From assembly GCA_963845565.1 (NCBI GenBank), contig CAWJSJ010000002.1, positions 1,600,001 to 1,664,000 on the forward strand: 64,000 bases of DNA. Reading direction: 5' to 3'. Of the stretch, positions 6,162 to 31,663 are shown in pieces (position 1 is the first letter of the stretch; every line of letters begins with the position of its first letter). The stretch is from an uncultured Methylomirabilota bacterium (GTDB lineage: Bacteria > Methylomirabilota > Methylomirabilia > Methylomirabilales > 2-02-FULL-66-22). Position numbers and translations under genes: made by a program. A model generated the notes under the pieces. It was not told the origin of the DNA. It saw only the letters and a program-made list of their open reading frames with translations, and ran no database searches.

Positions 6162-6237
<76 letters not shown>

Positions 6238-6531: not shown

Positions 6532-7194
6532 TCAATCGTCCGCGTCCTCACCTTCTGGTCCAGCCCAGCTCATCTCGCGATTGACCGGGATCGCCTGCCG
6601 GCACATGGGGCATTCGGATGGCGTATACGTCGGGACATCCTGCGAGACGATCGTGAACACGGGATACTTGAACGGCGTCCCACGGCTCCGGCGCCAGATC
6701 GCCCCGATGCCGACCACCTGCCCCCCCATACTCTCTACCAGCCGGATGAGTTGCTGAACGGTTTCGCCGGTGGTCAGAATGTCCTCGATGATGAGCACGC
6801 GGCCGCCTTCGGCGAAGAAGACGCGGTACTCCGCGGGGAGAGAGACCTCCGTCTGGCTGCCGACGCGCTTCTCCTTGGTGGCGAAGATGGATCGGGGGCG
6901 TGCCGGATGGGCGCGGGCCACGCAATGGCCGAGGAGGCCGGCGCTGTAGCCGGTGGTCAGCACCAGGTCCACCGGGGAGCGGCTGAAGTGCGTGGCAATG
7001 ATGTCGCCCAGGCCCGCGGTGAAGGTGGGCTCGGTCGTGACCAGCGTCTTGGCGACGTACTCCGAGGTGTGGCGGCCCGATCGCAGGACGATGTGGTCGT
7101 CGGTCCGATAGGCGCCGGTGCGAAGCAGGATTCCCCGGTTGAGCCGCTCCCGGATGACATCATCGATGGGTATGGATTTGTCATGATACGGCAT
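6532..7194 (-). CDS. pyrE: Orotate phosphoribosyltransferase-like type I PRTase
   Basis: HIVLRSGRHTSEYV, PRPP loop VLIIEDILTTGET, C-terminal CPMC. Confidence 0.75.
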   Translation of the reverse strand: MPYHDKSIPIDDVIRERLNRGILLRTGAYRTDDHIVLRSGRHTSEYVAKTLVTTEPTFTAGLGDIIATHFSRSPVDLVLTTGYSAGLLGHCVARAHPARPRSIFATKEKRVGSQTEVSLPAEYRVFFAEGGRVLIIEDILTTGETVQQLIRLVESMGGQVVGIGAIWRRSRGTPFKYPVFTIVSQDVPTYTPSECPMCRQAIPVNREMSWAGPEGEDADD

Positions 7195-9739: not shown

Positions 9740-11011
9740 CTAGATGAATTTTCGTACTGCCCGCTTCTTCCATATCATCGGCAGGATGAGGTTCAGGACA
9801 TCGTCCACGGTGATGATCCCGAGCAACTCACCCTCGCCGCCCACCACCGGCAGGGCCAACAGGTTGTACTTGGTCTGAAGCTCCGCGACCTCGCGCAGTG
9901 CGGTGTCCGGTCGGACGCTGACCACCTCGGCGTGCATGAGCTGCTCCAGGCGCTGGCCCGGATCGGCCAAGATCAGCTCGCGAAGGCTGAACACGCCCAG
10001 CAAGCGTTCCTGATGGTCCGTCACGTACAGGTAGTAGATGGTCTCGGCGTCCTTGGCCTCCTCGCGGATCCGCTTGATCGCCTCACCCGCCGTGAGCGCC
10101 GGGCGGAAGGCCACGTGTTCTGTGGTCATCAGGCCGCCGGCGGTGTCCTCCTCGTGTTCGAGGAGCTCCTCGACCTCCTGGGCCTCGGCCGGTTCCATGG
10201 TCTCGAGCAGCTCCTCGGCCTTGGCCTCTGGCAGGTCGCTCAGGATGTCCGCCGCCTCGTCCGGCTCCATCTCCTCCAGGATGTCCGCCGCCTTTTCCGG
10301 CTCCATCATCTGGACCATGGAGGCCTGGACCTCGGGCTGGGCCTCGGTGATGGTCTCGGCCGCGGTGGCTTCGTCCAGCGTCGCCAGCACGGCGGCTCGC
10401 TCGCCGGGCGTCAGCTCTTCCATGATGTCGGCGATGTCGGCGGGGTGAAGCTTGGCCAGCTTGGTGTACACCGCGTGCCGCTTGGCCCGGCTGAGCTCGG
10501 TCTCGATCGGGTCCACCACCTCCCAGGGGACCACGTCGTGGGGGAGGGGCTTCCCGAACAGGCCGGCCAACCGTTCGGCGAATCCCTCGGAGCGGAGGTG
10601 CCGCAGGATGCCCCGCAGACCCCCTTCGATCCCCGTGACCTGGAGGCCGCCCTCGAATTCGGCGAGCTCGATGTCGTTGACCCGGACCACCTTCTTTCGC
10701 GCCGTGTCCACGACCTTCTTGTCCAGGACGGTCTTTCCCAGGGGAACCTCCTCGGCCCGGAGTGCCACGGGGCTGAGGCCTGCGAGGGGATTCCGCAACC
10801 GGACGGGCCGGTCGGTGGTCTCGGGCACCTCGGCGACGCTGGCCCAGGGGAGAATCCACTCGTCGCGATCCGGCCGGCGGAGGCTGAATTTGGTCACCTG
10901 CGGCCGGGTCCCGAGCGGGAGGACAAAGAGATCCTCGAGGCGCCCGATCTCGGTCCCCTCGGAATCGTGGACGGGGCGGTGCCGGAGCTGGGTGAAGGAC
11001 AGGGAAGGCAT
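9740..11011 (-). CDS. Soluble MgtE-like protein: PRC barrels, MgtE N-domain and CBS pair, no membrane domain
   Basis: LAKLHPADIADIMEEL, EDTAGGLMT, IYYLYVTD, LLGIITVDDVL. Confidence 0.85.
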   Translation of the reverse strand: MPSLSFTQLRHRPVHDSEGTEIGRLEDLFVLPLGTRPQVTKFSLRRPDRDEWILPWASVAEVPETTDRPVRLRNPLAGLSPVALRAEEVPLGKTVLDKKVVDTARKKVVRVNDIELAEFEGGLQVTGIEGGLRGILRHLRSEGFAERLAGLFGKPLPHDVVPWEVVDPIETELSRAKRHAVYTKLAKLHPADIADIMEELTPGERAAVLATLDEATAAETITEAQPEVQASMVQMMEPEKAADILEEMEPDEAADILSDLPEAKAEELLETMEPAEAQEVEELLEHEEDTAGGLMTTEHVAFRPALTAGEAIKRIREEAKDAETIYYLYVTDHQERLLGVFSLRELILADPGQRLEQLMHAEVVSVRPDTALREVAELQTKYNLLALPVVGGEGELLGIITVDDVLNLILPMIWKKRAVRKFI

Positions 11012-11022
11012 GGCGGTCCGAT

Positions 11023-11661
11023 CTATGCGTCCGGTGGTTGAGAGGCGTGACGGTCGGTGGACTGAATCTCGTCCCAGGAGACTCGCAGGCGAATCCAGCC
11101 GCGGGCCGGCTCGACCCGGTCCACACACTCCCACCGGATCACGTGGTGGTGGAGCCGCGTGTGCAGCGGCCGCAGCAGAGCCAAGAGGCCCCAGTGAAAA
11201 CCGAGGCGGGTCAGGAATCCGCGGATGCCGGTGTCCATCCCCCAGAGGCACAGCGTCCCGTCGGAGAACGCCATGGTGATGTCGTTCACCCGCTGGAGTT
11301 TGGACCCGCGGCAATCCACGATCTGCTGGTCCAGGATGTGTTTGTGGAGCAGGACCTCGGTACCGCCCAGGGTGGCCGGGCCAAGATCCTGGCTGGTCTG
11401 CCGCAGGCGGATGGAACGGGGCTCCAGCGAGGCGACCAGCGCCCAGGGGACGACAAGTGGCTTCCCGGTACCATTGGCCGGAACCTGTCGTCCGAATCGG
11501 TGGGGCCGGACGACCAAATGCCGAACGCAGGCGTGTTCTGGGGTGGGGTTGACCGGGTCGGTGGACAGATCCAGCAGGGCGCCGATCGGAAAGCCGTCGC
11601 AATCCACCACTGGCTTGTGGAGAAGATCTCGATAGAAACTGACGTCGCGGCGGCTGGCCAT
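11023..11661 (-). CDS. Tandem PRC-barrel protein
   Basis: VVDCDGFPIGALLDL and ILDQQIVDCRGSKLQRVNDI parallel the N-terminus of the downstream gene. Confidence 0.75.
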   Translation of the reverse strand: MASRRDVSFYRDLLHKPVVDCDGFPIGALLDLSTDPVNPTPEHACVRHLVVRPHRFGRQVPANGTGKPLVVPWALVASLEPRSIRLRQTSQDLGPATLGGTEVLLHKHILDQQIVDCRGSKLQRVNDITMAFSDGTLCLWGMDTGIRGFLTRLGFHWGLLALLRPLHTRLHHHVIRWECVDRVEPARGWIRLRVSWDEIQSTDRHASQPPDA

Positions 11662-11748
11662 GCCGTTGACAACCCTTCCGATGCATCGGCCCCGGGAAAC
11701 GTGCCCAGGGCAGGCGATTTTACATGCCGGGATCACCCATGCGATTAG

Positions 11749-11848
11749 GAGCCGTTACGAAATACCTTGTCCATTTTTTGGAATTTCGTTACGGCTCCTT
11801 ATGCCGTTTCGAAATTTCTCCGGTCAAATTATTCTTTGGCAACGGCTC
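11749..11848. repeat. Family-B double-hairpin repeat
   Basis: GAGCCGTTACGAAAT...ATTTCGTTACGGCTC-CTTATGCCGTTTCG...GGCAACGGCTC. Confidence 0.75.
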
Positions 11849-12187
11849 AGGAAGGCGAGATGCCCTCCGATTGGTCCCTTGTACCGCCCCACTTCAGACC
11901 TGTCAACCCCCATTCTGGCCGTTTCCGGCCCGATGCGAGAATTCTCTCGGGCCCCGTGGCCTGAAAGCTGGCGCACTGAGATCCAACAAGGCGTCACCAC
12001 TGTTCACGAGAATCCGAGCGTACGACTGAAGCACAGAAGGTGTCGGAAACTTTCATCGCAAGGTCGGGACCGTCCGTCGAGTTTACACCTCCTGTTTTTA
12101 CGACGCGCCTAACGCGCAACGAATCATCAAGATTGCGTTCCACGTCAGTAGATGGGCGCGAAGGCGTCTCGGGTCGTCAGAGACGGC

Positions 12188-12203
12188 GTCGGGTTTTCTT
12201 ACA
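12188..12203. promoter_or_regulatory. Candidate enhancer box upstream of the PEP-CTERM gene
   Basis: GTCGGGTTTTCTTACA resembles the ...TTACA enhancer motif reported before PEP-CTERM genes. Confidence 0.35.
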
Positions 12204-12451
12204 TTTCTGGAATCATACGGAAACCAGGCCTCGTGCGCTGCGCATCGAGAAAATCCAGATAACACGTATAGTTGCATCACGCCAGAAGCGTCCCTGAACG
12301 CTATCGCATGAAATATGCATAACGAATGGTTGATTTCTCGTCAACGGACGACAGATGGTGGAGCGTTCGTAACTATAGGTCTTTGAGGTTATCAAGAAGA
12401 TTGGGGAACCGAAAAAAGGCATGGACGGATAGCCGCGAAGAGGAGAACGCC

Positions 12452-13093
12452 ATGAGACGGGCCCTGACGGCGGCCATGTTCGTGTCGTTGATGCTGGCTA
12501 TTGCGGCGCCTTGGGCGGAAGCGCTCTTCTCATGCGAACCGTATATTGCAATCAACTTTGTGCCCTCGTCGCAGACTGTTAACGTCGGCGACCCCCTCAG
12601 CGTTGCACTGCAGATATCCGGATTATCATCTCGACTATGGGGGACCGGCGCCCCATCACTCGGCGGGTTTGACCTCGACGTCACGTTCGACCCAAGCATC
12701 TTGAAGTTGAGCAATGTTGTATTCGGCGACCCCAAACGTGGAGATCAACTCGATCTCTTCGGGTTGGGGAGTATCAAGCTTACCGATCTCGGCGTTGGCA
12801 CCGTGAACCTCTTCGAGCTCTCCGTGAACTCGGCGTCAGTTCTGAATTGGCTTCAGGCCCCAAAGTTCACATTGGCCACGCTCTACTTCGATCCCATCTC
12901 GGTTGGATACAGCCCGCTTGAGTTCTCCGATTTTCTATTCGCCGACGCCCAAGGCTCGAAACTCGTCCCCGACCATGTGGGCCACGGGTCTGTCAATGTC
13001 GCCCCCGTCCCCGAGCCCGCCACGCTCCTGTTGCTCTCATCCGGACTCGCGGGATTAGGCCTCGCGGCCTGGAAGCGTCGTCGCCAGGGCTGA
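12452..13093 (+). CDS. PEP-CTERM-sorted cohesin-like domain protein
   Basis: Signal peptide; cohesin-like pattern VNVGDPLSVALQIS..LGGFDLDVTFDPSILKL..TLATLYF; C-terminus VPEPATLLLLSSGLAGLGLAAWKRRRQG. Confidence 0.85.
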   Translation: MRRALTAAMFVSLMLAIAAPWAEALFSCEPYIAINFVPSSQTVNVGDPLSVALQISGLSSRLWGTGAPSLGGFDLDVTFDPSILKLSNVVFGDPKRGDQLDLFGLGSIKLTDLGVGTVNLFELSVNSASVLNWLQAPKFTLATLYFDPISVGYSPLEFSDFLFADAQGSKLVPDHVGHGSVNVAPVPEPATLLLLSSGLAGLGLAAWKRRRQG

Positions 13094-13487
13094 GGCCCTG
13101 GTTTTTCGTACCCCAAGGGAATGATCGAAACTGCCGGTTCCGCCGCCCAGCGTTCGTGCTGCTGCACGGCAGGCGGGAATGGGGTGCGTGTGTGTCTTCG
13201 CGGTGTTCGTGCCGCGTGGCGCAAGCCCTTGAAGACAGCTGGCGGCTGGTAGGGCGAGTTTTTTCTTCTTCACGCAGTTCCTCGGAAGGTCCTTCCCCTC
13301 ACCATTACTCCCATTCCACGGACCGTTTTCCGATCGGCGCACACCCCTTTGGGCTAGGGCAATCTCATACACGTCGCCACGTGGGTGCCTTGTTCTCCAG
13401 GCTCGTCAGGAATAGGTGTGGCATGAACGGATGAAGCCTGTCGACCATTTCATCATTGGCCGAACAGCGTTGTAAGGGGAGACGGCA

Positions 13488-16400
13488 ATGGATACCACCG
13501 GGAAATTCAGCTTGCGCGTCATTCTCTTGGTCATGCTACTGGGGCTGTTCGGTCAAGCTGCCCACGCGGCGGTCGTCTGCGACGTCAATAACGACGGCGT
13601 CATCAACCTCACCGACATCAATCTTATCATCGCGGCTCGCAATAAGCCCGCAACGGGTCCGAACGATCCGCGCGATGCCGATCACGATGGGACAATCACG
13701 GTGCTGGACGCCCGTATCTGCGTGACCAGGTGCACCCTCCCCGGGTGCGCCGTCAGTGGGAATAGCCCGCCAACAGCAAATGCGGGCCCGGACCAGACGG
13801 TCGCATTGGGAGCGACCGTTACCCTGAACGGCTCCGGTTCGAGCGACCCGGATGGCAACTCGCTGGTCTATTCGTGGTCCTTCGTTTCCACGCCTGCCGG
13901 GAGCTCCACCTCGCTCCAGAACCCCACTTCAATCAACCCCCGCTTTGTCGTTGACGTTGCCGGCCCGTATGTTGTGCGACTCATCGTCAATGATGGAACT
14001 GTCGACAGCGCGCCCGATGATGTCCAGATCTCGACGATCAACTCGCGGCCGATCGCGAACGCCGGACCACATCAGACCGTGTTCGTCGAGACGACCGTGA
14101 CCTTGGACGGCTCGGGTTCGAGTGATCCCGACGGCGACCCACTCACGTTCACATGGTCGCTGGACAGCCTGCCGCTGGAGAGTACGACGACACTTCAGAA
14201 TATCCACAGCGTCAACCCGACGTTCGTTGCCGATACGCCGGGCACGTATATCGCCCAACTGATCGTCAACGACGGCAAGGTCGATAGTGCCCCGGCAACG
14301 GTCACCATTGATACGCAGAACTCTGCCCCGGTCGCCAATGCCGGGCCGAACCAGACGGTCGCGGTGGGCGCGACCGTGCAATTGAACGGCGCGAACTCCA
14401 CGGACGTCGACGGCGACCCGCTCACCTACAAGTGGTCGCTCACCACCAAGCCGACCGGAAGCACGGCGGCGCTGTCGGCGACCAGCATCGTCAACCCGAC
14501 GTTCGTTGCCGATACGCCGGGCACGTATATCGCCCAACTGATCGTCAACGACGGCAAGGTCGATAGTGCCCCGGCAACGGTCACCACCACGACACTCAAC
14601 ACCCCGCCGGTCGCCAATGCCGGGCCGAACCAGACGGTCGCGGTGGGCGCGACCGTGCAATTGAACGGCGCGAACTCCACGGACGTCGACGGCGACCCGC
14701 TCACCTACAAGTGGTCGCTCACCACCAAGCCGACCGGAAGCACGGCGGCGCTGTCGGCGACCAGCATCGTCAACCCGACGTTCGTTGCCGATACGCCGGG
14801 CACGTATATCGCCCAACTGATCGTCAACGACGGCAAGGTCGATAGTGCCCCGGCAACGGTCACCACCACGACACTCAACACCCCGCCGGTCGCCAATGCC
14901 GGGCCGAACCAGACGGTCTTCACGGGTAACATAGTCCAACTCAACGCCAGCGCCTCCGCCGATGCGGATGGCAATCCGCTGACCTACCAGTGGTCCTTCG
15001 CCAGCGCGCCAACAGGCAGCACGGCTATCCTGTCCAATCCGACCACGATCAGCCCGACCTTCACGGCCGACGTCTTCGGTACATACGTTGTCCAGTTGAT
15101 TGTGAACGACGGGTTCGTCAATAGCGCCCCCGTGACGGTCACGATCTCCACCCAGAACTCCGCCCCCGTCGCGAACGCAGGACCAAACCAGACGGTCGCA
15201 GCCGGCGGCACCGTCCAACTTGACGGCAGTGCCTCCTCGGACGTGGATGGCAACGCACTCCGCTTCAGATGGTCTCTACTCAGCACGCCGGCTGGAAGTT
15301 CGGCCACGCTGTCTGCGACCAATCTCGTCAACCCAACCTTTGTCACCGATCTAACTGGAACCTACGTCGCGCAACTGATCGTCAACGACGGGTTTGTCGA
15401 AAGCATCCCGGCGACCGTGACGGTTACGGTGACGGCGGGCACGCCGCCCCTGGCCGCCACGCTAGTGAGTCCGAACGGGACCGTGAGTACGGCCACCCCG
15501 ACCTACACCTGGAACGCCGTATCCGGCGCCACCTGGTATGAACTCTGGGTGACCGACAGCGCCCAGGCGGGGAAGGTCAAGCAGTGGGTGACCGCCGCCC
15601 AGGCGGGGTGCGCGGCCGGCACAGGGGCCTGCAGTTATACGCCCAGCACGGCCCTCGCGACCGGCGCGGCGACGTGGTGGATCCAGACGTGGAACAGTCT
15701 GGGCTACGGGCCGTGGAGTACCGGGATGGCCTTCACGGTGACGGCGGGCACGCCGCCCCTGGCCGCCACGCTAGTGAGTCCGAACGGGGCCGTGAGTACG
15801 GCCACCCCGACCTACACCTGGAACGCCGTATCCGGCGCCACCTGGTATGAACTCTGGGTGACCGACAGCGCCCAGGCGGGGAAGGTCAAGCAGTGGGTGA
15901 CCGCCGCCCAGGCGGGGTGCGCGGCCGGCACAGGGGCCTGCAGTTATACGCCCAGCACGGCCCTCGCGACCGGCGCGGCGACGTGGTGGATCCAGACGTG
16001 GAACAGTCTGGGCTACGGGCCGTGGAGTACCGGGATGGCCTTCACGGTGACGGCGGGCGCCCCCGTTATCACCCTCGTGAATCCCAACACCGGTCCGCAG
16101 GGCGCGACCAACCTCAACGTGGCCGTCACCGGCCAGAACACCAACTGGGTCCAGAATACCACCACGGCGAGCGTCGGCGCCGGGATCACGGTGAACAGCG
16201 TCACGGTGGCTAGCGTCACCAGCCTGACGGCCAACCTCACCATCGCGGCCGACGCGGCGACGGGTGCCCGCAGTCTCACCGTCACCACCAACGCCGAAAT
16301 CGTCACCCTGGCCAACGCCTTCACGGTGACGGCGGGGCCATCCGACCTCACAATCACCAAGACCCACACCGGCACCTTTTCCCAAGGCCAGGACGGAGCG

Positions 16401-19400
16401 ACATACAGCATCACGGTGAGCAACATCGGCCCCGGCCCCACGGCTGGAACCGTGACGGTGACCGAGACCGTGCCGACCGGTTTGACCGCGACGGGCATCG
16501 CGGGCACCGGCTGGACCTGTGCGCAGCCGGCGGGCCCCTGCACCCGAAGCGACCTCCTGGCCAGTGGCGGCAACTATCCCCCGATCAATCTGACGGTGAA
16601 TGTGGCCAATAGTGCGCCGGCCAGCGTGACCAACACGGCGACGGTGGCGGGAGGCGGGGAACTCAACACTGCCAACAACGCGGCGAGTGATGTGACGACG
16701 ATCGGAAGCGGGCCCGATCTCACGATCGCAAAGACCCACACTGGGAACTTCACGCAGGGCCAGACTGGGGCAACTTACGCCATCACCGTGAGAAACGTCG
16801 GCGCAGGTCCGACCGCCGGAACCGTGACGGTGACCGACACACTCCCGACCGGCCTCACGGCGACCGCCTTCGGCGCCGGCCCCACCGACGGCTGGAACTG
16901 CACCCTGACGCCGCTGTCCTGTGAGCGGAGCGGCGCCCTGGCCGCGGGGCAGAGCTATCCCGCGATCACCCTCACCGTCACCGTCGCCAGCAACGCCCCG
17001 GCCAACGAGACCAACACGGCAACCGTGGCGGGCGGCGGAGACGTGAACCCGAATAACAATACGGCCACGGACCCAACGACGATTCTTCCGGCGGCCAACC
17101 TGGCGCCCACCCTCGACCTGATCGCCGACCGGTCGATCCTCGAGGATGCCGGTCCGCAGACCGTCAACCTCACCGGCATCAGCGCGGGTCCGAACGAGAC
17201 CCAGGTTCTGACGGTGAGTGCCACTTCGAACAACCTGGCGCTGATCCCAAATCCCACGGTGACCTACACGAGTCCGAATGCCACGGGCAGCCTCGCCTTC
17301 ACCCCGGTGGCGAACGCCAGTGGGGCGGCTACGATCACGGTAACTGTCCAGGATAACGGCGGGACCGCCAACGGCGGCGTGGACACGTTCGTCCGCACCT
17401 TCACCGTGACCGTCACCGCGGTCAACGACGCCCCGACCCTCGACGCGATCGGCAACCTGAGCATCGCCGAGAACGCCGGCCCACAGACGGTCAACCTCAC
17501 CGGCATCAGGGCGGGCCCGAGGGAGACCCAGTCCTGACGGTGACCGCGACCTCGAACAACCTGGCGCTGATCCCCGATCCCACGGTGACCTACACCAGCC
17601 CGAACGCCACCGGCAGCCTCGCCTTCACCCCGGGGGCGGGGCAGAGCGGCAGGGCCACCATCACGGTGACGGTGCGACGACGGCGGCACGGCCAACGGGG
17701 GCGTGAACACCGTCACCCGCACCTTCACGGTGAGCGCGGTGCGGTCAACGATCCGCCGATCCTCGACCTGATCGCCGACCGGACGGTCATCGAGGACGCC
17801 GGCCCGCAGACGGTCACCCTCACCGGCATCAGCGCGGGCCCGAACGAGACCCAGGTTCTGACGGTGACGGCGACTTCGAACAACCTGGCGCTGATCCCGG
17901 ATCCCACGGTGACCTACACCAGTCCGAACGCCACGGGCAGCCTCGCCTTCACCCCGGTGGCGAACGCCAGTGGGGCGGCTACGATTACGGTGACTGTCCA
18001 GGATGACGGTGGCACGGCCAACGGCGGGGTGGACACGTCGTGCGGACGTTCACGGTGACGGTGACTGCGGTCAACGATCCGCCGACGCTGGATCTCGTCG
18101 GGCCCCTGACCGTCAACGAGGACGCCGGCCCGCAGACGGTGACCCTCACGGGCATCAGCGCCGGGTCCGCAACGAGAGCCAGACGCTGACCGTGACGGCG
18201 ACGTCCGAGCAACCCGGCGCTGATCCCGAACCCGACGGTGACCTACACCAGCCCGAACGCGACCGGCACCCTGACCTTCACCCCGGTGGCGAACGCCATT
18301 CGGGGCGGCGACGATCACGGTGACGGTCACCGATGACGGCGGAACGGCCAACGGCGGCGTGAACACGGTCGTCCGCACCTTCACGGTGACGGTGACGGCG
18401 GTCAACGACGCCGCCGACGCTGGATGCGATCGGCAACCTGAGCATCGCCGAGAATGCCGGCCCGCAGACGGTCAACCTCACCGGCATCAGCGCGGGCCCG
18501 AACGAGACCCAGGTCGCTGACCGTGACCGCGACCTCGAACAACCTGGCGCTGATCCCCAACCCCACCGTGACCTACACCAGCCCGAACGCGACCGGCAGC
18601 CTCACCTTCACCCCGGTGGCGGGCCAGAGCGGTAGTGCCACCGTGACGGTGACCGTGCAGGATAATGGCGGCACGGCCAACGGGGGCGTGAACACTGTCA
18701 CCCGGACGTTCACGGTGACGGTGACGGCGCTGCCCGTCGTCACGATCACCGCCACGGACGCCAACGCCGCGGAGACCAATTTGGATCCGGGGGTGTTCAC
18801 GGTGAGTCGAACTGGCTCGACGACGAGCGCTCTTACCGTAAGCTACACGATCGGGGGCATGGCGACTAACAGCACCGACTATCAGAACCTGACAGGGACC
18901 GTTACCATCGCTGCCGGACAGGCTTCCAATACCATCACGATCACGCCAATCGACGACAGCGTCTTCGAAGGTCCGGAAACCGCCATTCTCACCCTTGCCG
19001 CGAACGCGGCGTACACTATTGGCGCACCGAGTGCTGCGACCGTGACGATCGCAGACAACGATACGCTGGGGACCATCACGTTGCCGACCCTGCCAACCGA
19101 CGTCGGGGCGGGGCTCCAGCGCGGTGCCTTCACGGGGGACCTGGGCGCGCCGGCCCCAACTGGAGGGGTGACCGTCCGAATCCAGAGCAGTAACGCCGCC
19201 GTGGTCCTGGTTTCACCCAACGCCACCACCGCGGGCACGGCCTTCATCGACATCGCGAGGACCGCAGGGCAACAGAGCTTCACCTACTACGTCCAGGGAG
19301 TGGAGGGGCAGGCGGGGAACGCCGCGACGCTCACCGCGTCGGCCACGAACTTCACGAGTGGCACCGGTGGCGTGAACGTGCGCCAGCCAGGGGTGGATAT

Positions 19401-22400
19401 CCTTGACCTGTCGGAAACCCCGACCACGCTCTCCGCCGATGACCCGTTCTACGTGCGCCTCGGTTGGGCCGAGCCAGGCGATACCACGGTGCGCAACGTC
19501 CAGGAAATCCGCGCCGGCGGGGTGCCCATCACGGCGAACCTGAGTCTCATCAACAGCAACCCGGCCGGGGTAGCCCAGCTCACGACCTTGGCCGGCTCCG
19601 CCCAGACGCGCACCGTCACCATCGCCGTCGGGTCGGCGACGTCTCCCGGCACCGTGGCTGACGGCGGTGTAGCCTTCGACGCGCTCCTTCCCGGAACCGT
19701 CCAGGTCCAGGCCACCATCCCAGGTTTCGTGACCACCGGTGTGGGGACGAGAAGTATCACGGTGACTGGCCCCGACCTGGCGATCTCCAAGGCCCACACC
19801 GGCAACTTCACTCAGGGCCAGACGGGGGCCACGTACACGATTACGGTCTCCAACAGCGGGAGTGCTGCCACGAGCGGAACAGTAACCGTGACCGATACGC
19901 TGCCGACGGGCCTGACCGCAACGGCTATCGCAGGAACGGGTTGGAGTTGTACGCTCGGCACGCTCACCTGTACCCGCAGCGACGCCTTGGCGGTCGGCGG
20001 GAGCTATCCGGCCCTCACCCTCACCGTGAATGTGGCGGCCAACGCTCCGGCCAGTGTGACGAACACGGCGACTGTTTCGGGGAACGGCGACACCAACGCG
20101 GCCAACAACACCGCCAGTGACGTGACGGCGATCACGCCAGTTGCCGACCTGACGATCACCAAGACCCACACGGGCAGCTTCACGCAGGGCCAGACTGGGG
20201 CGACGTACACGATCACCGTGGGGAACGCCGGCCCCGGCCCGACAAGCGGGACCGTGACCGTGACCGATACTCTTCCGACGGGACTCACGGCCACGAACAT
20301 CAGCGGCGGATCCGGCTGGAACTGCACCCTCGGGACCCTGACATGCACTCGTAGCGACGTTCTGCAGCCGGGTACCAATTACTCGCAGATTCTTCTAACG
20401 GTGAACGTCGCCAGCAACGCCCCGGCCAGCGTGACCAACACGTGCGACCGTGGCGGGCGGCGGGGAAGCCAACACCGCAAACAACACGGCCACGGATCCA
20501 ACAACGGTGACGCCGGTCGCCACGGCCGACCTGGCGGTGACCAAGACCGCGAGCACCCTGACCCCCTCGGTGGGGCAGAACGTCACCTTCACCGTGACCG
20601 TGACGAATAGTGGCCCCGCCAACGCCACCGGGGTTGCGGTGACGGATTTGCTCCCGTCTGGGTACACCTTCGTTGGGGTCGCCCCCAGCGTAGGGACTTA
20701 CAACAGCACCACCGGGTTCTGGAGCCTGGGGTCTCTGGCCAACGCCGCGAGCGCCACGCTCGGGCTCACCGGCACGGTCCTCGCCACGGGCACCTACATC
20801 AACACGGCCACCATCACCGCGTCGACCCCCACGGACCCGAACGCGGCGAACAACAGCGCCACCGTGACGGTAACGCCGGTCGCCCAGGCCGACCTCACGA
20901 TCTCGAAGACCCACACCGGTAACTTCACCCAGGGCCAGATCGGGGCCACCTACACGCTCGCCGTGTCCAACATCGGCTCCGGCCCGACCACCGCACCCGT
21001 GACGGTGACCGACACCGTGCCGACCGGCCTGACGGCGACCGCCCTCGCGGGCACCGGTTGGACCTGCACGCAGCCGGCGGGTCCCTGCACCCGGAGCGAC
21101 GCCCTCGCTGCCAGCGCCAGCTATCCGGCGATCACGTTGACGGTCAACGTGGCGGCCAACGCTCCGGCCAATGTAACCAACACGGCAACCGTGGCGGGCG
21201 GCGGGGACGCGACTCCCGGCAACAACACGGCGAGCAACCCGACGACGATCCTTGCGTCGTCCGCCGATATCGCCGTGACCAAGACGGTCAACAATCCCGT
21301 TCCCGTAGTCGGAACGAACGTCACGTTCACTATCACAGTCACCAACACCGGTCCGTCGAACGCCACGGGAGTGCAGATCACCGATCAGCTTCCGAACGGT
21401 TATCTGTTTGCCTCATCGACCGCGAGTCAGGGCGCGTACACCAATACCACCGGGATTTGGAGTGTCGGGAATCTGAACGCCGCACAAAGCGCATCGCTGC
21501 AGGTTGTGGCGACGGTCGTAGCCGGTGGGACGTACACGAATACAGCAACCAGGACCGCATCTTCTCCGACGGATACCAACGCCGGAAACGACGTTGCGAC
21601 GGCAACCGTCGCTCCGTCGTATCGCGGGCCCACGGCTGTCCCCGGCTCGAACCAGACCGCTAACGAGGGTGCGCAGGTTTGCTTTAACGGGAGTGGGTCA
21701 ATACCTGGCGATTGGCCGATCACGACATACTCCTGGAGCTTCGGCGACGGCGGCACCGCTTTCGGGTTAACTCCGTGCCACATCTATGCGGATAATGGCG
21801 TCTACACCGTCACCCTCACGGTGACCGACTCCATCGGGGCCATCAACAGCGCCGGACTTACGGTTACGGTCAATAATGCCGTACCGACCGTCAATGCCGG
21901 ACAAGATCGGGTGGTTGCGGTGGAGACCCCTCAACTTTAACGGCACCTTCACCGATCTCGGAACGAACGACGGCCCGTATACCGTTAGCTGGGATTTCGG
22001 CGACGGCACTGCGCCGGTCACCGGAACGCTCACCCCAACGCACGAGTTCGAGACAGGCGGCACGTACACGGTGACCTTGTCAGTCACCGACAAGGACGGC
22101 GGCGTCGGAACCGATACAGCCACAGTCAAGGTCATGAACACCGGTCCCCAGTTCTTCTTCTCCGGCCAGGCGGGCACCTACACCACGCCGCTCAACGCCG
22201 GGACCGGGACCCGGGTCCAGGGCTACGTACAGCTCGCGGCCAACCCCACCGCCCCGGTAAACGTCACCCTCACCTCGGCGAACCCGGCGGTGCTGACGCT
22301 GGCCCCCTCCAACACCACCACGGCCGGGACCGGGAGCCTCACCGTCACCATCCCGACGAATAGCAACTACGTCCTCTTCGACCTCGTCGGCGGCCCCACC

Positions 22401-25400
22401 GCCGCGGAGCCCCCGAAGTTGCACGGGCCCACGGCCGTCGCCCGCGATACGGCCGGGAACCTCTACATCGCCGACCGCGACGGCTACCGGGTCCGCAAGG
22501 TCACCGCCGCCGGCATCCTCTCCACCATCGCCGGCACCGGCACGGCGGGCTACAGCGGCGACGGCGGCCTCGCCACCGCCGCGCAGTTCCAGTACCCGAT
22601 GGGCATAGCGGTGGACGGGAGCGGCAACGTCTACATCGCCGACTACAACGACCACCGGGTCCGGAAGATCACTGCGGCCACCGGGATCATCTCCACCATC
22701 GCCGGCACCGGCACGGCGGGCTACAGCGGCGACGGTGGCCAAGCCACCAGCGCCCGGCTCTACAGCCCCAACGGGGTCCGCGTCGCCGCCAGCGCCCTCT
22801 ACATCGCCGACTCCAACAACGACCGGATCCGGAAGGTGGACCTCGCCACCGGGATCATCACCACCGTGGCCGGCACCGGCACGGCCGGCTACAGCGGCGA
22901 CGGCGGCCTCGCCACCGCCGCCCAGCTCTACACCCCGTACAATGTCGCCCTGGATGCGGCGAACAACCTGTACATCGCGGACTACGGCAACCAGCGGATC
23001 CGCAAGGTCGACGCCGCCACCGGGATCATCACCACCATCGCCGGCACCGGCACGGCGGGCACCACGGGGGACGGCGGCCCGGCCACCAGCGCCCAGATCT
23101 ACTACCCGACCGGGGTGGCGGTAGCCGAGGGCGGCACCGTCGTCTACCTCGCCGACTACTACAACGACCGGATCCGGAAGGTGGATGCCACCGGCACCAT
23201 CACCACCTATGCCGGCGGCGGCAACAAGCTGGGGGACGAGGGGCCGGCCACCGAGGCGTACGTCAACGGCCCCTACAGCCTCAGCGCGGATACCGCCGGC
23301 AACCTCTACATCGCCGCATACGGCGAATCCCGCATCCGCCAGATCGACACCGGCGGCTTCATCCACACCCTGGCCGGCACCGGGGAGGCGGGCTTCAGCG
23401 GGGACGGCAGCGTCGCCACGGGGGTGACGCTCACCGCCACGGCGGGCGGCTTCACCGACGCGATCATCCCGGTCCGGGTGGGGCAGACCACGTGGACGAT
23501 CAGCGTCGCCACCGACCTCACGACCTTGACCACCACCACGCCCGTCACCGTCCAGGCGTCGATCCCCAACGTCGGCAGCGGGCAGCGGCTGGCGGCTGCC
23601 ACCACCGTTACGCTCGGCAGCACCAACGCGGCGGTCCTGACGGTGCCGACCAGCGTGGCCATCGCCAATAACGCGACCTCCGGGGCGGTCACCGCCAGCA
23701 CGCACAACGTCACCGGCACGGCCCAGATCACCGCCGGTGCCGCCAACGGGATCGCCGCCGGCATCTCGCCCGTCGTCAACGTGCGGGGTCCCCAGTTCTT
23801 CTTCTCCGGCCAGGCGGGCACCTACACCACGCCGCTCAACGCCGGGACCGGGACCCGGGTCCAGGGCTACGTACAGCTCGCGGCCAACCCCACCGCCCCG
23901 GTAAACGTCACCCTCACCTCGGCGAACCCGGCGGTGCTGACGCTGGCCCCCTCCAACACCACCACGGCCGGGACCGGGAGCCTCACCGTCACCATCCCGA
24001 CGAATAGCAACTACGTCCTCTTCGACCTCGTCGGCGGCCCCACCGCCGCGGAGCCCCCGAAGTTGCACGGGCCCACGGCCGTCGCCCGCGATACGGCCGG
24101 GAACCTCTACATCGCCGACCGCGACGGCTACCGGGTCCGCAAGGTCACCGCCGCCGGCATCCTCTCCACCATCGCCGGCACCGGCACGGCGGGCTACAGC
24201 GGCGACGGCGGCCTCGCCACCGCCGCGCAGTTCCAGTACCCGATGGGCATAGCGGTGGACGGGAGCGGCAACGTCTACATCGCCGACTACAACGACCACC
24301 GGGTCCGGAAGATCACTGCGGCCACCGGGATCATCTCCACCATCGCCGGCACCGGCACGGCGGGCTACAGCGGCGACGGTGGCCAAGCCACCAGCGCCCG
24401 GCTCTACAGCCCCAACGGGGTCCGCGTCGCCGCCAGCGCCCTCTACATCGCCGACTCCAACAACGACCGGATCCGGAAGGTGGACCTCGCCACCGGGATC
24501 ATCACCACCGTGGCCGGCACCGGCACGGCCGGCTACAGCGGCGACGGCGGCCTCGCCACCGCCGCCCAGCTCTACACCCCGTACAATGTCGCCCTGGATG
24601 CGGCGAACAACCTGTACATCGCGGACTACGGCAACCAGCGGATCCGCAAGGTCGACGCCGCCACCGGGATCATCACCACCATCGCCGGCACCGGCACGGC
24701 GGGCACCACGGGGGACGGCGGCCCGGCCACCAGCGCCCAGATCTACTACCCGACCGGGGTGGCGGTAGCCGAGGGCGGCACCGTCGTCTACCTCGCCGAC
24801 TACTACAACGACCGGATCCGGAAGGTGGATGCCACCGGCACCATCACCACCTATGCCGGCGGCGGCAACAAGCTGGGGGACGAGGGGCCGGCCACCGAGG
24901 CGTACGTCAACGGCCCCTACAGCCTCAGCGCGGATACCGCCGGCAACCTCTACATCGCCGCATACGGCGAATCCCGCATCCGCCAGATCGACACCGGCGG
25001 CTTCATCCACACCCTGGCCGGCACCGGGGAGGCGGGCTTCAGCGGGGACGGCAGCGTCGCCACGGGGGTGACGCTCACCGCCACGGCGGGCGGCTTCACC
25101 GACGCGATCATCCCGGTCCGGGTGGGGCAGACCACGTGGACGATCAGCGTCGCCACCGACCTCACGACCTTGACCACCACCACGCCCGTCACCGTCCAGG
25201 CGTCGATCCCCAACGTCGGCAGCGGGCAGCGGCTGGCGGCTGCCACCACCGTTACGCTCGGCAGCACCAACGCGGCGGTCCTGACGGTGCCGACCAGCGT
25301 GGCCATCGCCAATAACGCGACCTCCGGGGCGGTCACCGCCAGCACGCACAACGTCACCGGCACGGCCCAGATCACCGCCGGTGCCGCCAACGGGATCGCC

Positions 25401-27074
25401 GCCGGCATCTCGCCCGTCGTCAACGTGCGGGGTCCCCAGTTCTTCTTCTCCGGCCAGGCGGGCACCTACACCACGCCGCTCAACGCCGGGACCGGGACCC
25501 GGGTCCAGGGCTACGTACAGCTCGCGGCCAACCCCACCGCCCCGGTAAACGTCACCCTCACCTCGGCGAACCCGGCGGTGCTGACGCTGGCCCCCTCCAA
25601 CACCACCACGGCCGGGACCGGGAGCCTCACCGTCACCATCCCGACGAATAGCAACTACGTCCTCTTCGACCTCGTCGGCGGCCCCACCGCCGCGGAGCCC
25701 CCGAAGTTGCACGGGCCCACGGCCGTCGCCCGCGATACGGCCGGGAACCTCTACATCGCCGACCGCGACGGCTACCGGGTCCGCAAGGTCACCGCCGCCG
25801 GCATCCTCTCCACCATCGCCGGCACCGGCACGGCGGGCTACAGCGGCGACGGCGGCCTCGCCACCGCCGCGCAGTTCCAGTACCCGATGGGCATAGCGGT
25901 GGACGGGAGCGGCAACGTCTACATCGCCGACTACAACGACCACCGGGTCCGGAAGATCACTGCGGCCACCGGGATCATCTCCACCATCGCCGGCACCGGC
26001 ACGGCGGGCTACAGCGGCGACGGTGGCCAAGCCACCAGCGCCCGGCTCTACAGCCCCAACGGGGTCCGCGTCGCCGCCAGCGCCCTCTACATCGCCGACT
26101 CCAACAACGACCGGATCCGGAAGGTGGACCTCGCCACCGGGATCATCACCACCGTGGCCGGCACCGGCACGGCCGGCTACAGCGGCGACGGCGGCCTCGC
26201 CACCGCCGCCCAGCTCTACACCCCGTACAATGTCGCCCTGGATGCGGCGAACAACCTGTACATCGCGGACTACGGCAACCAGCGGATCCGCAAGGTCGAC
26301 GCCGCCACCGGGATCATCACCACCATCGCCGGCACCGGCACGGCGGGCACCACGGGGGACGGCGGCCCGGCCACCAGCGCCCAGATCTACTACCCGACCG
26401 GGGTGGCGGTAGCCGAGGGCGGCACCGTCGTCTACCTCGCCGACTACTACAACGACCGGATCCGGAAGGTGGATGCCACCGGCACCATCACCACCTATGC
26501 CGGCGGCGGCAACAAGCTGGGGGACGAGGGGCCGGCCACCGAGGCGTACGTCAACGGCCCCTACAGCCTCAGCGCGGATACCGCCGGCAACCTCTACATC
26601 GCCGCATACGGCGAATCCCGCATCCGCCAGATCGACACCGGCGGCTTCATCCACACCCTGGCCGGCACCGGGGAGGCGGGCTTCAGCGGGGACGGCAGCG
26701 TCGCCACGGGGGTGACGCTCACCGCCACGGCGGGCGGCTTCGTCACCGGTGTCATCCCGGTGAGGGTGAATCAAACACAATTTGTCTTCTCGGGGTTGAG
26801 TACGACGATAAACAACGGGGTCACCGACACTTTCAATATCTATATCAATCACCCCAACATCGGGAATGTGCGAGCCGCAGCGACAACCGGTGTGGCCTTG
26901 ACGAGCAGCAATACCTCGGTTCTTGCCGACCCCGTGGCTGTGACCATCGCAAACAATACCACCAATGTGGCGGCATCGGTGACGGCAGCCGGACCAGGAA
27001 CGGCGACGCTGACGGCAAGCTCACCCGGCTCGGGGATCAATGCCGCCGGTTCGGCGACCATCACGGTGCCGTAA
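13488..27074 (+). CDS. Giant (~4,500 aa) secreted adhesin: dockerin-like, 6 PKD-like, 2 Fn3-like, IPT-like, DUF11, cadherin/Big-like, Calx-beta, PKD and 3 NHL propellers; split by several frameshifts
   Basis: ORFs 13488-17537, 17540-18058, 18454-20610, 20450-21940 and 21876-27074 join through 1-bp indels inside repeated domains; signal peptide at the N-terminus. Confidence 0.85.
14207..14917 (+). repeat. Near-exact 279-bp tandem repeat (PKD-like domains)
   Basis: CGTCAACCCGACGTTCGTTGCCGATACGCCGGG recurs with a 279-bp period. Confidence 0.9.
15426..16058 (+). repeat. 309-bp tandem duplication (Fn3-like domain)
   Basis: Two copies; the only difference seen is NGTVS versus NGAVS. Confidence 0.9.
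22143..26741 (+). repeat. 1644-bp tandem repeat, about 2.8 copies
   Basis: Units start at 22143, 23787 and 25431; identical shadow ORFs at 22735, 24379 and 26023. Confidence 0.95.
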
Positions 27075-27110: not shown

Positions 27111-27149
27111 AGACACGAAAGGCCTCCGTTACGGAGGTCTTTCGTGTCT
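27111..27149. terminator. Strong hairpin after the adhesin gene, probable terminator
   Basis: AGACACGAAAGGCCTCCG-TTA-CGGAGGTCTTTCGTGTCT. Confidence 0.75.
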
Positions 27150-28323: not shown

Positions 28324-29709
28324 TTATCGCTGCTTCAAGAGCCAATCGATGATTTCGGAGCCATCCCGTGGCCCCCTCTTCGTCCCGGGCGCGACGTCTT
28401 GCGGGGGCGCGGGAGGTCGGGTCCTCCGGGAGGATTTGACCTTCCCTTCCGTCGGGGGGGACGTGGGTTTCGTCTCTCCCAGCCCCTCCCTCTCCTTGGG
28501 CGGAGGTTCCGGAAGCACCCGTTCCGGACGCGGCTGTGCCTGCGAAGGTGGAGCCGGCAGCTCCGGCGCCCTCTTTTCGGATTCTTCCGCAGGCGCCGGT
28601 TCAGGGATCACCGTCTGACGTGGTTGCGGTTGGGGCGGCGGCTGGTACGTGTCCTCCGGGGCCCACCGAGGGTAGAGCACCCAGAATGACGCGGCGGCGA
28701 GCACGAGGAGCACGCCGACGATCGCGGTGACGATCCACCGCGTGCCCACCCGCGGACGCTGCGAGGGTTGTCCCCCGGCCTTGGCCGCCGTGGCCACGGG
28801 CCGACGTCCGCTGGTTGGCTTCCCCACTCGCCCCGCCCCTACCCGTTGCAGGAACTCGTGGACCACCTCGTTCGCGCTGTTCTGGCGCCATTTCGGCGCT
28901 TTCTCCAGCGCCCGCAGGATCTGGGCCTCGATCTCGACCGGGATCTCCGCCCGCAATGCCTTGGGTGGAGTCGGCGCGACCGAGAGGTGCATGGCCAGGA
29001 CGGCCTCGGACGTGGACCCGCGGAAGGGGACGACGCCTGTCAGCATTTGGTAGAGGACGATCCCGAAGGCATAGATGTCCGTCTGTTTGGTGATCTCCCG
29101 TCGTTGGATCTGCTCCGGAGCCGCATACGCCGGCGTGCGCGTGAGTTGCGTCGCGGGAACGAGGTGATCCATGGCCCCCGCGTTCTTCAACCGCGCCCGC
29201 TCGAAGCCGATGAGCTTCACGGTGTCCTTGTCCCCCAGGACCAGGACGTTCTTCGGGTGCACGTCCGTGTGGACAAGACTCGCATCATGGGCCGCGGTCA
29301 ATCCCTCGGCCATCTGGACGGCCACGGACAAGGCGCGGTCGATCTGGAGGACCCCTTTCTCCTGCCGCAGCACGTCGTGCAGGGTCCGTCCCTCGATCTG
29401 CTCCATCACGATGAAGAGGCTGCCATCGTCCGCTTGGTCGCAGTCGTACACTCTGACGATATGGGGTTGCGTCTTCGAGAGGGCTGCGACGGCCATCATC
29501 TGTCGATGGAGCCTCTCCACAAACTCCTTTCCCTTCGTAAACTCGCCCCGGAACAGCTTCACGACGAGCCCGGCCCCCGTCCCGTGCTGCTGGGCAAGGT
29601 ACGTCACCCCCAGGCTGCCCGTCGCGAGCCGGCGCGTCACGTGGTACTTGCCCTTGATCACCTGGCCGACCAAGGGGTCCGCGGCTCCCCCATCCCCCGT
29701 CCGCTCCAC
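28324..29709 (-). CDS. Membrane-anchored Hanks-type Ser/Thr kinase-like protein, probable pseudokinase
   Basis: Kinase subdomains VVKLF, HTDVHPKNVLV, YAAPEQ, DIYAFGIVLYQMLTG; one TM helix; Pro-rich tail; GTG after GGAGGAG. Confidence 0.8.
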   Translation of the reverse strand: MERTGDGGAADPLVGQVIKGKYHVTRRLATGSLGVTYLAQQHGTGAGLVVKLFRGEFTKGKEFVERLHRQMMAVAALSKTQPHIVRVYDCDQADDGSLFIVMEQIEGRTLHDVLRQEKGVLQIDRALSVAVQMAEGLTAAHDASLVHTDVHPKNVLVLGDKDTVKLIGFERARLKNAGAMDHLVPATQLTRTPAYAAPEQIQRREITKQTDIYAFGIVLYQMLTGVVPFRGSTSEAVLAMHLSVAPTPPKALRAEIPVEIEAQILRALEKAPKWRQNSANEVVHEFLQRVGAGRVGKPTSGRRPVATAAKAGGQPSQRPRVGTRWIVTAIVGVLLVLAAASFWVLYPRWAPEDTYQPPPQPQPRQTVIPEPAPAEESEKRAPELPAPPSQAQPRPERVLPEPPPKEREGLGETKPTSPPTEGKVKSSRRTRPPAPPQDVAPGTKRGPRDGSEIIDWLLKQR

Positions 29710-29903
29710 GGTGCTCCTCCTCTTCTCACACCGGTGCGTCGGGGCCGCCGGGCACTGTGTGTCTTGCCCCGACCCGGCGGTCCGGGAATATACTACCTCA
29801 CCCCCTTCCATAACTCCAGTGGACGCACCGGGGACGGGAGGCGGGAGAGCGTGAGGCGAGCGAGCAGAGGACAGTGCGGCAGCGGGACAGGGGAGGGGTG
29901 GGG

Positions 29904-31106
29904 CTAGGTCAGCGTGAGGAGCACGACCTCGGGCGGGGCGTTCAGGCGAATCGGGGTCCAGGCGGTGCCGATGCCGCGGGTCCCGTACGCGTGGGAGGCG
30001 TTGAGGCGATAGAGGCCCCCAGGGTACGGGCTCAGGAGGTGGGCCACGCTCAGCTCCAGGCCGGGGAGGTTCACCCGGATCTGGCCGCCATGCCAGTGAC
30101 CGGCGAGCGTCAGGGGAACCCCGTGACAGGCCGCATCCGGGAAGATCTCGGGGTAATGCGATAAGAGGAGCGTCGGGGTGGACGGATCGAGTCCGTGCAA
30201 CGCCGCTCCAAGATCCGGCCGCCCGCTCTCGAGGTCGTCTATCCCGGCAACGGCGAACGGCCCCTGGTCCGTCTGGATGACGCGATGGGCATTGTTCAGC
30301 AGCGCGATCTGCTGCGCGCGAAAGACGGCCTCGATCTCGCGCGGGTTCCCGTACCAGTGCTCGTGGTTTCCCAGGACGGCAAAGGTGCCGTAGCGGGAGC
30401 GCACCCGCGCCAGCTCCTCGGCGCACCCGTACAGGAACGACATCGCGTTGGAGATGAAATCCCCGGTGAGGACGAACAGGTCCGGCTGGAGGGTATTCGC
30501 CAGGTCGGCATAGTCTTTCACTGCATCGCGCGTCATGTACAATCCGGCGTGGATGTCGCTGAGGTGGACCACGCGCAGCGAGCGGCCGAACGGCACGGAG
30601 AGCTCGGTGACCCGATACGCCCTGGTGGCGTATGCCGAACGGTATCCCACAAACACGAAAGGGGCCGAGGCGAGGCCGGCCAAGCCGGCCTGGAGCAACC
30701 GACGCCGGTGGATGTCTCTCGGCGCCGGCGGCGCGGCCCCCGCCGCACGCCTCGAGAGCCGGGAGGCGAGATGGCGCAGGCGGCTGGCGGCTCGAAGCAG
30801 GCACAGCACCACGGCGGAGAGTATTGACCCGTAGTTCCACACCACCGCCGGAAACAGCAGGCCGACCTGGGCGGCGAACGGGGGCTCCACCCAGGGCAGG
30901 CGGGCGAGCACGACGTAGGCGTGGAGCACCCACAGGCACGCGATGGCGGCGCCGACGTACCACGTCGCCCGCGACCGGAATCGCGCGGACCACGCCGAGG
31001 CCCGGAGGGCCCGGCGGACCTGGAGGAAGAGGTAGATTTACGCCAGGGCCCCGACCAGCAGGATGGCCGGGCGAAAGAGCAAGAGAGCGGCACCAAGCGC
31101 GTGCAT
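29904..31106 (-). pseudogene. Membrane metallophosphoesterase (YkuE-like) with an in-frame TAA at codon 23
   Basis: SDIH, TGDF, GNHE and GHWHGGQ motifs; in-frame N-terminus MHALG...GALA*IYLFLQ with TAA at 31038-31040. Confidence 0.7.
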
Positions 31107-31207
31107 GCGGCGGACTCCGGTTCAAATGCTTGCTGCGACCCGGAAGATATGAGAACCTCCGGGCATGCGCAAGCGCCTCTGTCTGGAAGCCATGCGAAGG
31201 AACGGAT

Positions 31208-31663
31208 ATGCAACCGGAACCGGATGTGAGCAAGGCCAGGCAGCTCCGCCCATCGGTGGCGGCGATCATCCCCAACGACGACGGGCACGTCCTGTTGCAG
31301 CGCCGATCGGATAACGGCCTGTGGGGCCTCCCCGGCGGCGGGGTGGAGATCGGGGAATCCGTCTCGACCGCCATCGTCCGGGAGGTCCAGGAAGAGACGG
31401 GGCTGACCGTGATGATCGAACGCCTGGTGGGGGTGTATTCCGACCCGCGGTTTCAGGTGGTCCGGTACGCGGATGGGAATGTCGTGCACTACATCAATAC
31501 CCTCTTCGTCTGTCGCATCGCGGGAGGGACGCTCCAGACCTGCGAGGAGACCCTGGATCTCCAGTTCTTCGACCCGGCGCACCTCCCCGAAGGAATGCTT
31601 CTCTCGCACCGGATCCGGGTCCAGGACGCCGTGGCCAACCGCCCCGAGGGGTTTATCCGGTGA
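31208..31663 (+). CDS. NUDIX hydrolase
   Basis: Nudix box GGGVEIGESVSTAIVREVQEETG. Confidence 0.92.
   Translation: MQPEPDVSKARQLRPSVAAIIPNDDGHVLLQRRSDNGLWGLPGGGVEIGESVSTAIVREVQEETGLTVMIERLVGVYSDPRFQVVRYADGNVVHYINTLFVCRIAGGTLQTCEETLDLQFFDPAHLPEGMLLSHRIRVQDAVANRPEGFIR

Follow-up and report, generated by a model that had tools for sequence, protein, structure and literature searches.

Non-cellulosomal cohesins and dockerins occur across life, with roles given as unknown in the accessible part of one survey (PMC5244752), and anchoring proteins with a single cohesin are treated as a recognised 'nonSLH-anchoring' class in the accessible part of another (PMC11557425; SLH, S-layer homology). The nearest described counterparts of the system reported here are OlpA and OlpC of Clostridium thermocellum (PDB 3ul4, 4dh2) and ScaE of Ruminococcus flavefaciens (2zf9), in which one cohesin of the same fold is combined with a C-terminal envelope anchor and takes a dockerin partner. 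We analysed a stretch of 64,000 nucleotides (the window) from an uncultured Methylomirabilota bacterium (assembly GCA_963845565.1, contig CAWJSJ010000002.1), where the gene for a small cohesin protein with a PEP-CTERM tail (the socket) is followed on the same (+) strand by a giant adhesin-like gene whose product begins with a dockerin (the plug). We conclude that the socket probably tethers this large protein at the cell envelope through its N-terminal dockerin. OlpA and OlpC are anchored by SLH domains and ScaE by an LPXTG motif; unlike them, the socket has a PEP-CTERM anchor in a diderm host, and its partner is an adhesin or another non-cellulolytic protein.

The tail of the socket scores above the cut-offs of both relevant models (Pfam PEP-CTERM, 27.2 bits against 20.7; TIGR02595, 25.4 against 16), and the protein has the signal peptide, PEP motif, transmembrane (TM) helix and basic end of PEP-CTERM proteins. 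Its start codon, ATG 12452, is preceded by GAGGAG; an alternative start at 12326 was rejected because this ribosome site and the family alignment favour 12452. The single sequence stays below threshold against Pfam Cohesin (PF00963, 13.5 bits, cut-off 24.1, E = 0.084). The search for relatives returned 102 homologues, 91 of which were aligned with the query; among these 92 family members, 31 match Pfam Cohesin at E ≤ 0.01 and 87 match PEP-CTERM, and the family profile retrieves from the PDB a scaffoldin cohesin of Acetivibrio cellulolyticus (3l8q, E = 7e-7). An AlphaFold model of the socket has a mean confidence (pLDDT) of 92.4. All Foldseek matches listed for it are cohesins (best 2vn5, E = 7e-11), as are the first 20 in VIA (Z = 16.7-11.4, best root-mean-square deviation 2.0 over 137 residues), the next non-cohesin fold standing at Z = 10.3. 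The modelled passenger thus has the cohesin fold, a nine-stranded jelly-roll beta-sandwich that matches solved cohesins, and the original prediction of a small secreted protein made of one cohesin and a PEP-CTERM tail is borne out. By a strict rule, 70 of 101 cohesin-matching frames carry a PEP-like tail and two are cut; the other 29, by reading, mostly show a variant motif with a hydrophobic stretch and a basic end, a few being fragments. The weak match of the socket to the PepA equivalog NF033554 over residues 45-209 (32.5 bits, cut-off 80) rules it out as a PepA protein.

The dockerin of the adhesin-like protein is the only dockerin match in the host genome. Both calcium-binding loops named in the original prediction are present, and the Pfam Dockerin_1 cut-off is passed narrowly (23.0 against 22.9), so that the profile check then proposed succeeded for the dockerin; for the cohesin, the query itself stayed below the cut-off and part of its family matched. 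Against the PDB, the dockerin family profile places a cellulosomal dockerin first (2y3n, E = 7.7e-9), ahead of calmodulins; a thrombospondin-type reading of the loops, raised by a match to an MtsC model, was rejected because PDB dockerins rank first. In an alignment of 147 dockerins the loop aspartates (positions 1, 3, 5, 9 and 12) are 80-100% conserved or D/N, Cys82 and Cys87 are found in 140 rows, and Cys31 and Cys78 covary, both being present in 107, neither in 39 and only one in a single row. These cysteines probably form two disulfides (Cys31/Cys78 and Cys82/Cys87), hence the domain would fold outside the cytoplasm. Judged from the alignment, the dockerin belongs to a distinct subfamily marked by a conserved linker and the two cysteine pairs. 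Among 50% representatives, 2,118 sequences are related to the 63-residue domain at E ≤ 0.001, and 475 of them reach 1e-10.

The socket and the adhesin dockerin are predicted to bind each other. Three runs of complex prediction with two calcium ions gave a score of 0.90, the best of three controls giving 0.00, as the original prediction would have it; the score mark used is reached by 116 of 157 solved pairs and 2 of 215 mismatched pairs, a calibration that is rough for our own alignments with ligands. At least 98% of the contacts are shared between runs, with a pLDDT of at least 93 for the partner. In the model, mainly the second calcium loop and helix of the dockerin (V72, L73, R76) lie on the cohesin face formed by D74, S124 and D165, and these three residues and R76 are conserved. 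Type I cohesin-dockerin pairs have a two-fold symmetric dual binding mode. Here the recognition positions are not the same in the two halves of the dockerin, and in the model, which covers one binding mode, it is mainly the second half that is engaged.

Linkage of the two families is observed in both directions and across phyla. In the host genome, the single cohesin and the single dockerin stand 569 bases apart, and the genes, with an intergenic gap of 394 bases, are not tightly coupled. Among 251 genomes of the phylum the cohesin family occurs in two and the dockerin family in five, side by side in both cohesin genomes, and such a spacing of two families this rare argues that the pairing is not due to chance. 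Starting from the cohesin (49 loci in 46 genomes) and using a hidden Markov model (HMM) built from dockerin relatives, we found the dockerin family in 36 loci, within 1.5 kb in 32; among the 13 negative loci, four have less than 300 bases upstream, and in two the adjacent gene encodes another dockerin-like motif. Starting from the dockerin (the best 80 of 149 stretches, giving 77 loci less two duplicates, many on short contigs), the cohesin was found in 45 of 75 distinct loci, within 1.5 kb in 42. The gene co-occurrence survey proposed in the original prediction was therefore positive from either side. By record label, positive loci fall in some 12 higher groups (Gammaproteobacteria, Desulfobacterota-type deltas, Binatia, Acidobacteriota, Nitrospirota, Verrucomicrobiota, Planctomycetota, Myxococcota, Spirochaetales, Methylomirabilota, one Deferribacteres and one Chloroflexia), and carriers include the cultured Methylovulum psychrotolerans and Methylomonas rivi. 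One genome (G031) has a more distant cohesin-PEP-CTERM gene directly before an atypical N-terminal dockerin. Of 40 relatives, 13 match through the PEP tail only, and none of these 13 has a dockerin match. A count of 40 dockerin-matching genomes among the 46 with a cohesin was discarded as circular, the profile alignment having been drawn from those loci.

The same dockerin serves, as far as the alignments tell, as a tag at either terminus of many unrelated proteins, so that the system is wider than one adhesin. Among the 146 aligned of the best 150 relatives it is terminal in 134 (56 N-terminal, 63 C-terminal, 15 in small proteins) and internal in 12. The cargo of 41 dockerin open reading frames (ORFs) falls into 24 unrelated groups, and a scan of 34 (best five families per protein) found multicopper oxidase, tyrosinase, arylsulfotransferase, nuclease/phosphatase, BNR and FG-GAP propellers, immunoglobulin (Ig) and cadherin stalks, and a prepilin-type protein. 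In 73 cases, 47 C-terminal dockerins have the cohesin downstream and 16 N-terminal ones have it upstream, with two exceptions and eight unclassified; this is a tendency only, since the pattern is partly forced by the 1.5-kb cut and is broken beyond it by L018, L032, L043, L106 and L136. Dockerin and cohesin DNA is likely transferred as a single unit that acquires new cargo.

Some loci combine these elements in other ways. A single protein at L030:8885-9976, 25 bases from a cohesin match, has a prepilin-type N-terminus and a C-terminal dockerin. At locus L043 (Nitrospirales label) there are two cohesins together with four dockerin frames, a tyrosinase and a multicopper oxidase among them. L110:5477-6769 and L140:5914-7146 have an N-terminal dockerin and, by reading, an aromatic tail like that of an outer-membrane barrel, with no cohesin nearby. 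In a genome of the same genus (G004), the dockerin is N-terminal on a protein of 2,092 residues with PKD, TSP3 and propeller repeats (L068:2494-8769), and its gene sits downstream of a sigma-54-type activator-like gene.

The plug in the window belongs to a span that agrees with the predicted secreted protein of about 4,500 residues in strand and length. It is not one ORF, being broken into five pieces (13488-17537, 17540-18058, 18454-20610, 20450-21940 and 21876-27074), and the 14 indels counted against an intact first cadherin-like repeat all fall in 17424-18729. We compared three breaks with contigs of related strains (four runs, two studies, 12 of 23 matches listed). Relative to the window, these have two bases more at 21929-21935 (4/4 runs), one base fewer at 18513-18516 (3/4) and 99 letters for 103 at 20443-20545 (2/4), all in the direction that keeps the frame. 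The frameshifts are thus likely assembly errors, short of proof since the contigs come from other strains. One such contig runs across the junction between NHL units one and two, showing that the units are found in tandem elsewhere too. The propellers, which the original prediction set at the distal tip, do lie in the last third of the protein, each within a tandem unit of 548 residues and each followed by further Ig-like sequence, so the tip is only approximate; their insertion in an Ig loop is weakly suggested (E = 7e-4 and 0.35). No TM helix was found at the C-terminus (hydropathy over 19 residues peaks at 1.48 in the last ORF), and no sorting family, C-terminal barrel or RTX domain is among the Pfam and NCBIfam matches of that ORF, in agreement with the reading that the protein ends in GSATITVP with no anchor of its own. 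A self-anchored or self-secreting adhesin (autotransporter, type IX or type I/RTX secretion) was rejected: barrel and sorting domains are lacking, the first and last ORFs together hold one GGxGxD, and a Sec-type signal is present.

In the mechanism that we propose, both proteins would reach the periplasm by Sec, the dockerin would gain its two disulfides and calcium, and both would exit through a secretin. Two secretins are encoded in the host genome, one in a pilMNOPQ-like run (by reading) and one in a cluster resembling GspE/F/M/C/G; the latter, akin to a type II secretion system (T2SS), is the candidate route. The cohesin of the socket would then bind the dockerin and hold the protein at the envelope, presumably on the outer surface, where an Ig stalk, its three NHL propellers remote from the tether, may act as an adhesin. 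Most carriers have an exosortase, which would cleave the tail and anchor the socket anew; one is found in 39 of the 46 other cohesin-bearing genomes, in 70 of 135 well-completed genomes of the phylum and in 6 of the 12 genus genomes that are at least 90% complete. Because none was found in the host genome, the socket there would keep its own TM helix or use an unassembled or unknown enzyme. For MYXO-CTERM proteins, the accessible sections of PMC11980579 propose that lack of the sortase does not wholly prevent arrival at the surface.

Several observations weigh against the tether. PF09721, TIGR04178 (to E = 1), tblastn and an unfiltered HMM made from four relatives all failed to find an exosortase in the host assembly, nor were EpsI or the TIGR03016 partner found there, the EpsI search having matched no control either; the original prediction's 'exosortase-anchored' therefore fits the socket family and not the host copy, for which tethering stands on folds, predicted complex, adjacency and the missing adhesin anchor and falls short on exosortase processing. 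As the assembly is 98.72% complete in six contigs, an exosortase may still lie in a gap. The T2SS-like genes all score below the curated Gsp cut-offs. Interface positions are no more conserved than the rest of the cohesin (0.57 against 0.54, p = 0.31), and since solved cohesin-dockerin complexes exist, the complex score of 0.90 may reflect likeness only and shows that, not binding by this copy. The adhesin gene is frameshifted in this assembly, with three breaks only compared, in other strains. Finally, 30 of the 75 dockerin loci have no cohesin in the available DNA, and G004 (about 100% complete, 10% contaminated, exosortase present) has the dockerin without the family cohesin.

The absent exosortase gives most room to a decaying or orphan copy. 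On this reading the family is a tether elsewhere, but the host would have acquired or kept the cassette once its exosortase was gone, leaving the socket trapped in the inner membrane and the adhesin either set free or a pseudogene. In line with this, exosortase is patchy in the genus, the cassette occurs in 1 of 21 genus genomes, the cohesin gene has a G+C content at third codon positions (GC3) of 0.70 against 0.83-0.94 for its neighbours, the adhesin is frameshifted, and a genome with few PEP-CTERM proteins and no EpsH is read as a loss state in the part of PMC1569441 available. On the other side, the five PEP-CTERM tails of the host genome are intact and nearly alike, close socket homologues (82-94% identity) occur in other samples, related strains keep the frame at three breaks, and the remaining 7 of the 46 other carriers likewise lack an exosortase match (completeness not given); we regard decay as unlikely. 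The absence would by default also leave the cohesin on the periplasmic face of the inner membrane, where an uncut socket might hold the dockerin, N-terminal here, as an export chaperone or as a plug during threading through the secretin. LapA-type retention offers an analogy for an adhesin held while threading out. Most carriers, however, have an exosortase, and most cargo has a C-terminal dockerin and includes globular enzymes that could not span the outer membrane in this way, which makes such retention improbable.

Nor do we give much credence to a matrix cross-link, by which a socket shed from the cell or linked to exopolysaccharide would fix the adhesin in the biofilm matrix instead of on the cell that makes it. 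Floc formation requires PEP-CTERM proteins such as PepA (10.1101/2023.06.07.544157, accessible part), the socket has the weak PepA-model match given above, and cohesin and dockerin proteins are highly expressed in syntrophic aggregates according to the part of PMC10553843 at hand; against it, the accessible part of the floc study argues for surface anchoring of these proteins over release. It is very improbable that the two domains do not bind at all, the dockerin being a calcium-stabilised cap that neighbours the cohesin only because PEP-CTERM genes are regulated together. Dockerins without a neighbouring socket do exist, and in six cohesin-negative loci a C-terminal dockerin is directly followed by a member of a second, as yet unnamed PEP-CTERM family, which was found in none of the 49 cohesin loci. 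The cognate folds, the complex prediction with its null controls and the two-way linkage over many phyla speak for binding, and a genome-wide dockerin search found none near the four further PEP-CTERM genes of the host (C1:293050-293700, C2:1925620-1926300, C3:27043-27378 and C5:615913-616716).

The second family has 399 homologues and a jelly-roll model (pLDDT 92.6, best match Bd1399, Z = 9.5); it is possibly an alternative socket, or a co-regulated neighbour. A reading of it as a remote cohesin is unsupported (hhalign probability 0.2%, no cohesin among the matches listed), and a search of five dockerin-related genomes, run without a positive control, did not find it. More speculatively, and with less confidence than we place in the tether itself, the cysteine-capped dockerin may be a portable retention tag read by a single PEP-CTERM cohesin in a two-part display system of diderms from many phyla, able to take even an N-terminal cargo of 4,500 residues, working in some hosts without exosortase on an uncut tail, and perhaps with the second family as an alternative socket.

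The features of the locus are collected in the table below. The 13-base word just 5' of both start codons was defined from its own two sites and is not used as evidence: its exact pattern occurs only twice in the whole genome (2 matches in the window against 0.31 expected), and in other genomes only scattered one-mismatch matches were seen, in 6 of 155 loci. No sigma-54 site of the PrsR regulon type was found with fewer than four mismatches to the consensus on the + strand of 11700-13490. Divergent from the cohesin gene lie a PRC-barrel/MgtE-N/CBS protein and a second PRC-barrel protein (9740-11736, -), and near the cassette a Ser/Thr kinase domain protein with a TM segment and a proline-rich tail (28324-31374, -).

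Table. Features of the socket-plug locus and of related loci (window positions unless a contig, C, or locus, L, is named).
Feature	Position	Strand	Basis or remark
Socket gene, 213 residues: signal peptide, one cohesin, PEP-CTERM tail	12452-13093	+	
Socket signal peptide, residues 1-24	12452-12523	+	Inferred from sequence; A24 nearly invariant in family
Cohesin domain, residues ~30-185	12539-13006	+	Foldseek, VIA, profile match
PEP-CTERM tail: VPEP, TM helix, basic end	13007-13090	+	Pfam, NCBIfam, sequence
Giant adhesin-like gene, span of 4,529 codons	13488-27074	+	Indel-broken in assembly
Adhesin signal peptide, residues 1-27, ending AHA	13488-13568	+	Inferred from sequence; hydropathy peak 2.13
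Dockerin of the Cys-capped family	13569-13754	+	Pfam, family profile, alignment
Six PKD-like Ig domains	13761-15440	+	
Two near-identical 103-residue repeats, one unnamed Ig-like domain, two DUF11	15441-17096	+	
Five 109-residue cadherin-like/Big_9 repeats	17097-18729	+	14 indels against intact first repeat
Calx-beta, two unnamed Ig-like domains, five DUF11, two PKD	18730-22142	+	Frame breaks ~20443-20545, 21929-21935
Three tandem 1,644-base units, one NHL beta-propeller each	22143-26768	+	99.3-99.7% identical
NHL propellers	22410-23393, 24054-25037, 25698-26681	+	
Last beta-rich domain, ending GSATITVP	26763-27071	+	Ig-like, inferred; anchor not found
18-bp hairpin, likely terminator	27111-27149	+	Past adhesin stop
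13-base word	12418-12430	+	Shared with 13420-13432, one position different
Compact T2SS-like cluster (GspF, E, PilM-like, M, C, D, two pseudopilins)	C2:2675000-2684300 (L074)		
Second PEP-CTERM family	L105:5355-6176, L118:6246-6998, L137:6224-6967, L138:2838-3653 and 6190-7017, L142:466-1203, L146:3403-4042		

Among non-cellulosomal systems, the adhesins of syntrophic sulfate-reducing bacteria (HotSeep-1, Seep-SRB1g, Seep-SRB2; Murali et al. 2023, PMC10553843) resemble the present one in their diderm hosts and adjacent cohesin and dockerin genes. An entry of the accessible supplement, PQXE01000085.1:4871-5368, called a type II cohesin (cd08547), is our locus L002, a member of the socket family with a dockerin gene just upstream; the same supplement reports no homologues in non-syntrophic sulfate-reducing bacteria, and the accessible parts of the paper are silent on the PEP-CTERM tail, on how the proteins are sorted and on how widely they are spread. 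The highly expressed PXF55063.1 may be the L002 protein. The planctosome of Nemodlikiaceae, as described in the part of PMC6461901 available, is likewise a hypothetical non-cellulosomal cohesin-dockerin assembly on a diderm surface; unlike the socket, it has an anchor of 2,210 residues with a lamin-tail domain, an adaptor and peptidases, and no PEP-CTERM. Cohesin folds outside cellulosomes are also known from Archaeoglobus fulgidus (2xdh) and from Clostridium perfringens hydrolases (2jh2, 2vo8), where hosts, anchors and cargo differ.

With the PEP-CTERM/exosortase system, as outlined in the accessible part of PMC1569441, the socket shares the N-terminal signal, the tripartite C-terminal tail, diderm hosts and, in most carriers, an exosortase. 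It departs from the usual PEP-CTERM protein, PepA included, in a passenger with a recognisable protein-binding fold and a linked partner, and in a host genome with no exosortase found. The roles of PEP-CTERM proteins are largely open, and the socket family would receive a concrete job, the binding of a named partner of 60 residues. Such a tether would let Gram-negative cells retain large secreted proteins with neither a barrel nor a lipid anchor, a native, disulfide-stabilised diderm pair would be a new part for surface display, and the host genome is a natural test of the need for exosortase.

Compared with OlpA, OlpC and ScaE, the socket system differs in having a single socket per genome, usually with one to four plugs, and no multi-cohesin scaffoldin, and its dockerin has conserved cysteine pairs. 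It is not a cellulosome, having neither such a scaffoldin nor many dockerin-bearing glycoside hydrolases, and with one cohesin, one dockerin and an Ig/NHL cargo in the genome the original prediction of a non-cellulosomal assembly holds. Particular to the host copy are the missing exosortase and the N-terminal tethering of a cargo of 4,500 residues. A literature search, with subscription journals mostly outside it, found no report of PEP-CTERM linked with a cohesin or dockerin; non-cellulosomal cohesin-dockerin pairs as such are known, and what is new relative to the literature found is their link with PEP-CTERM.

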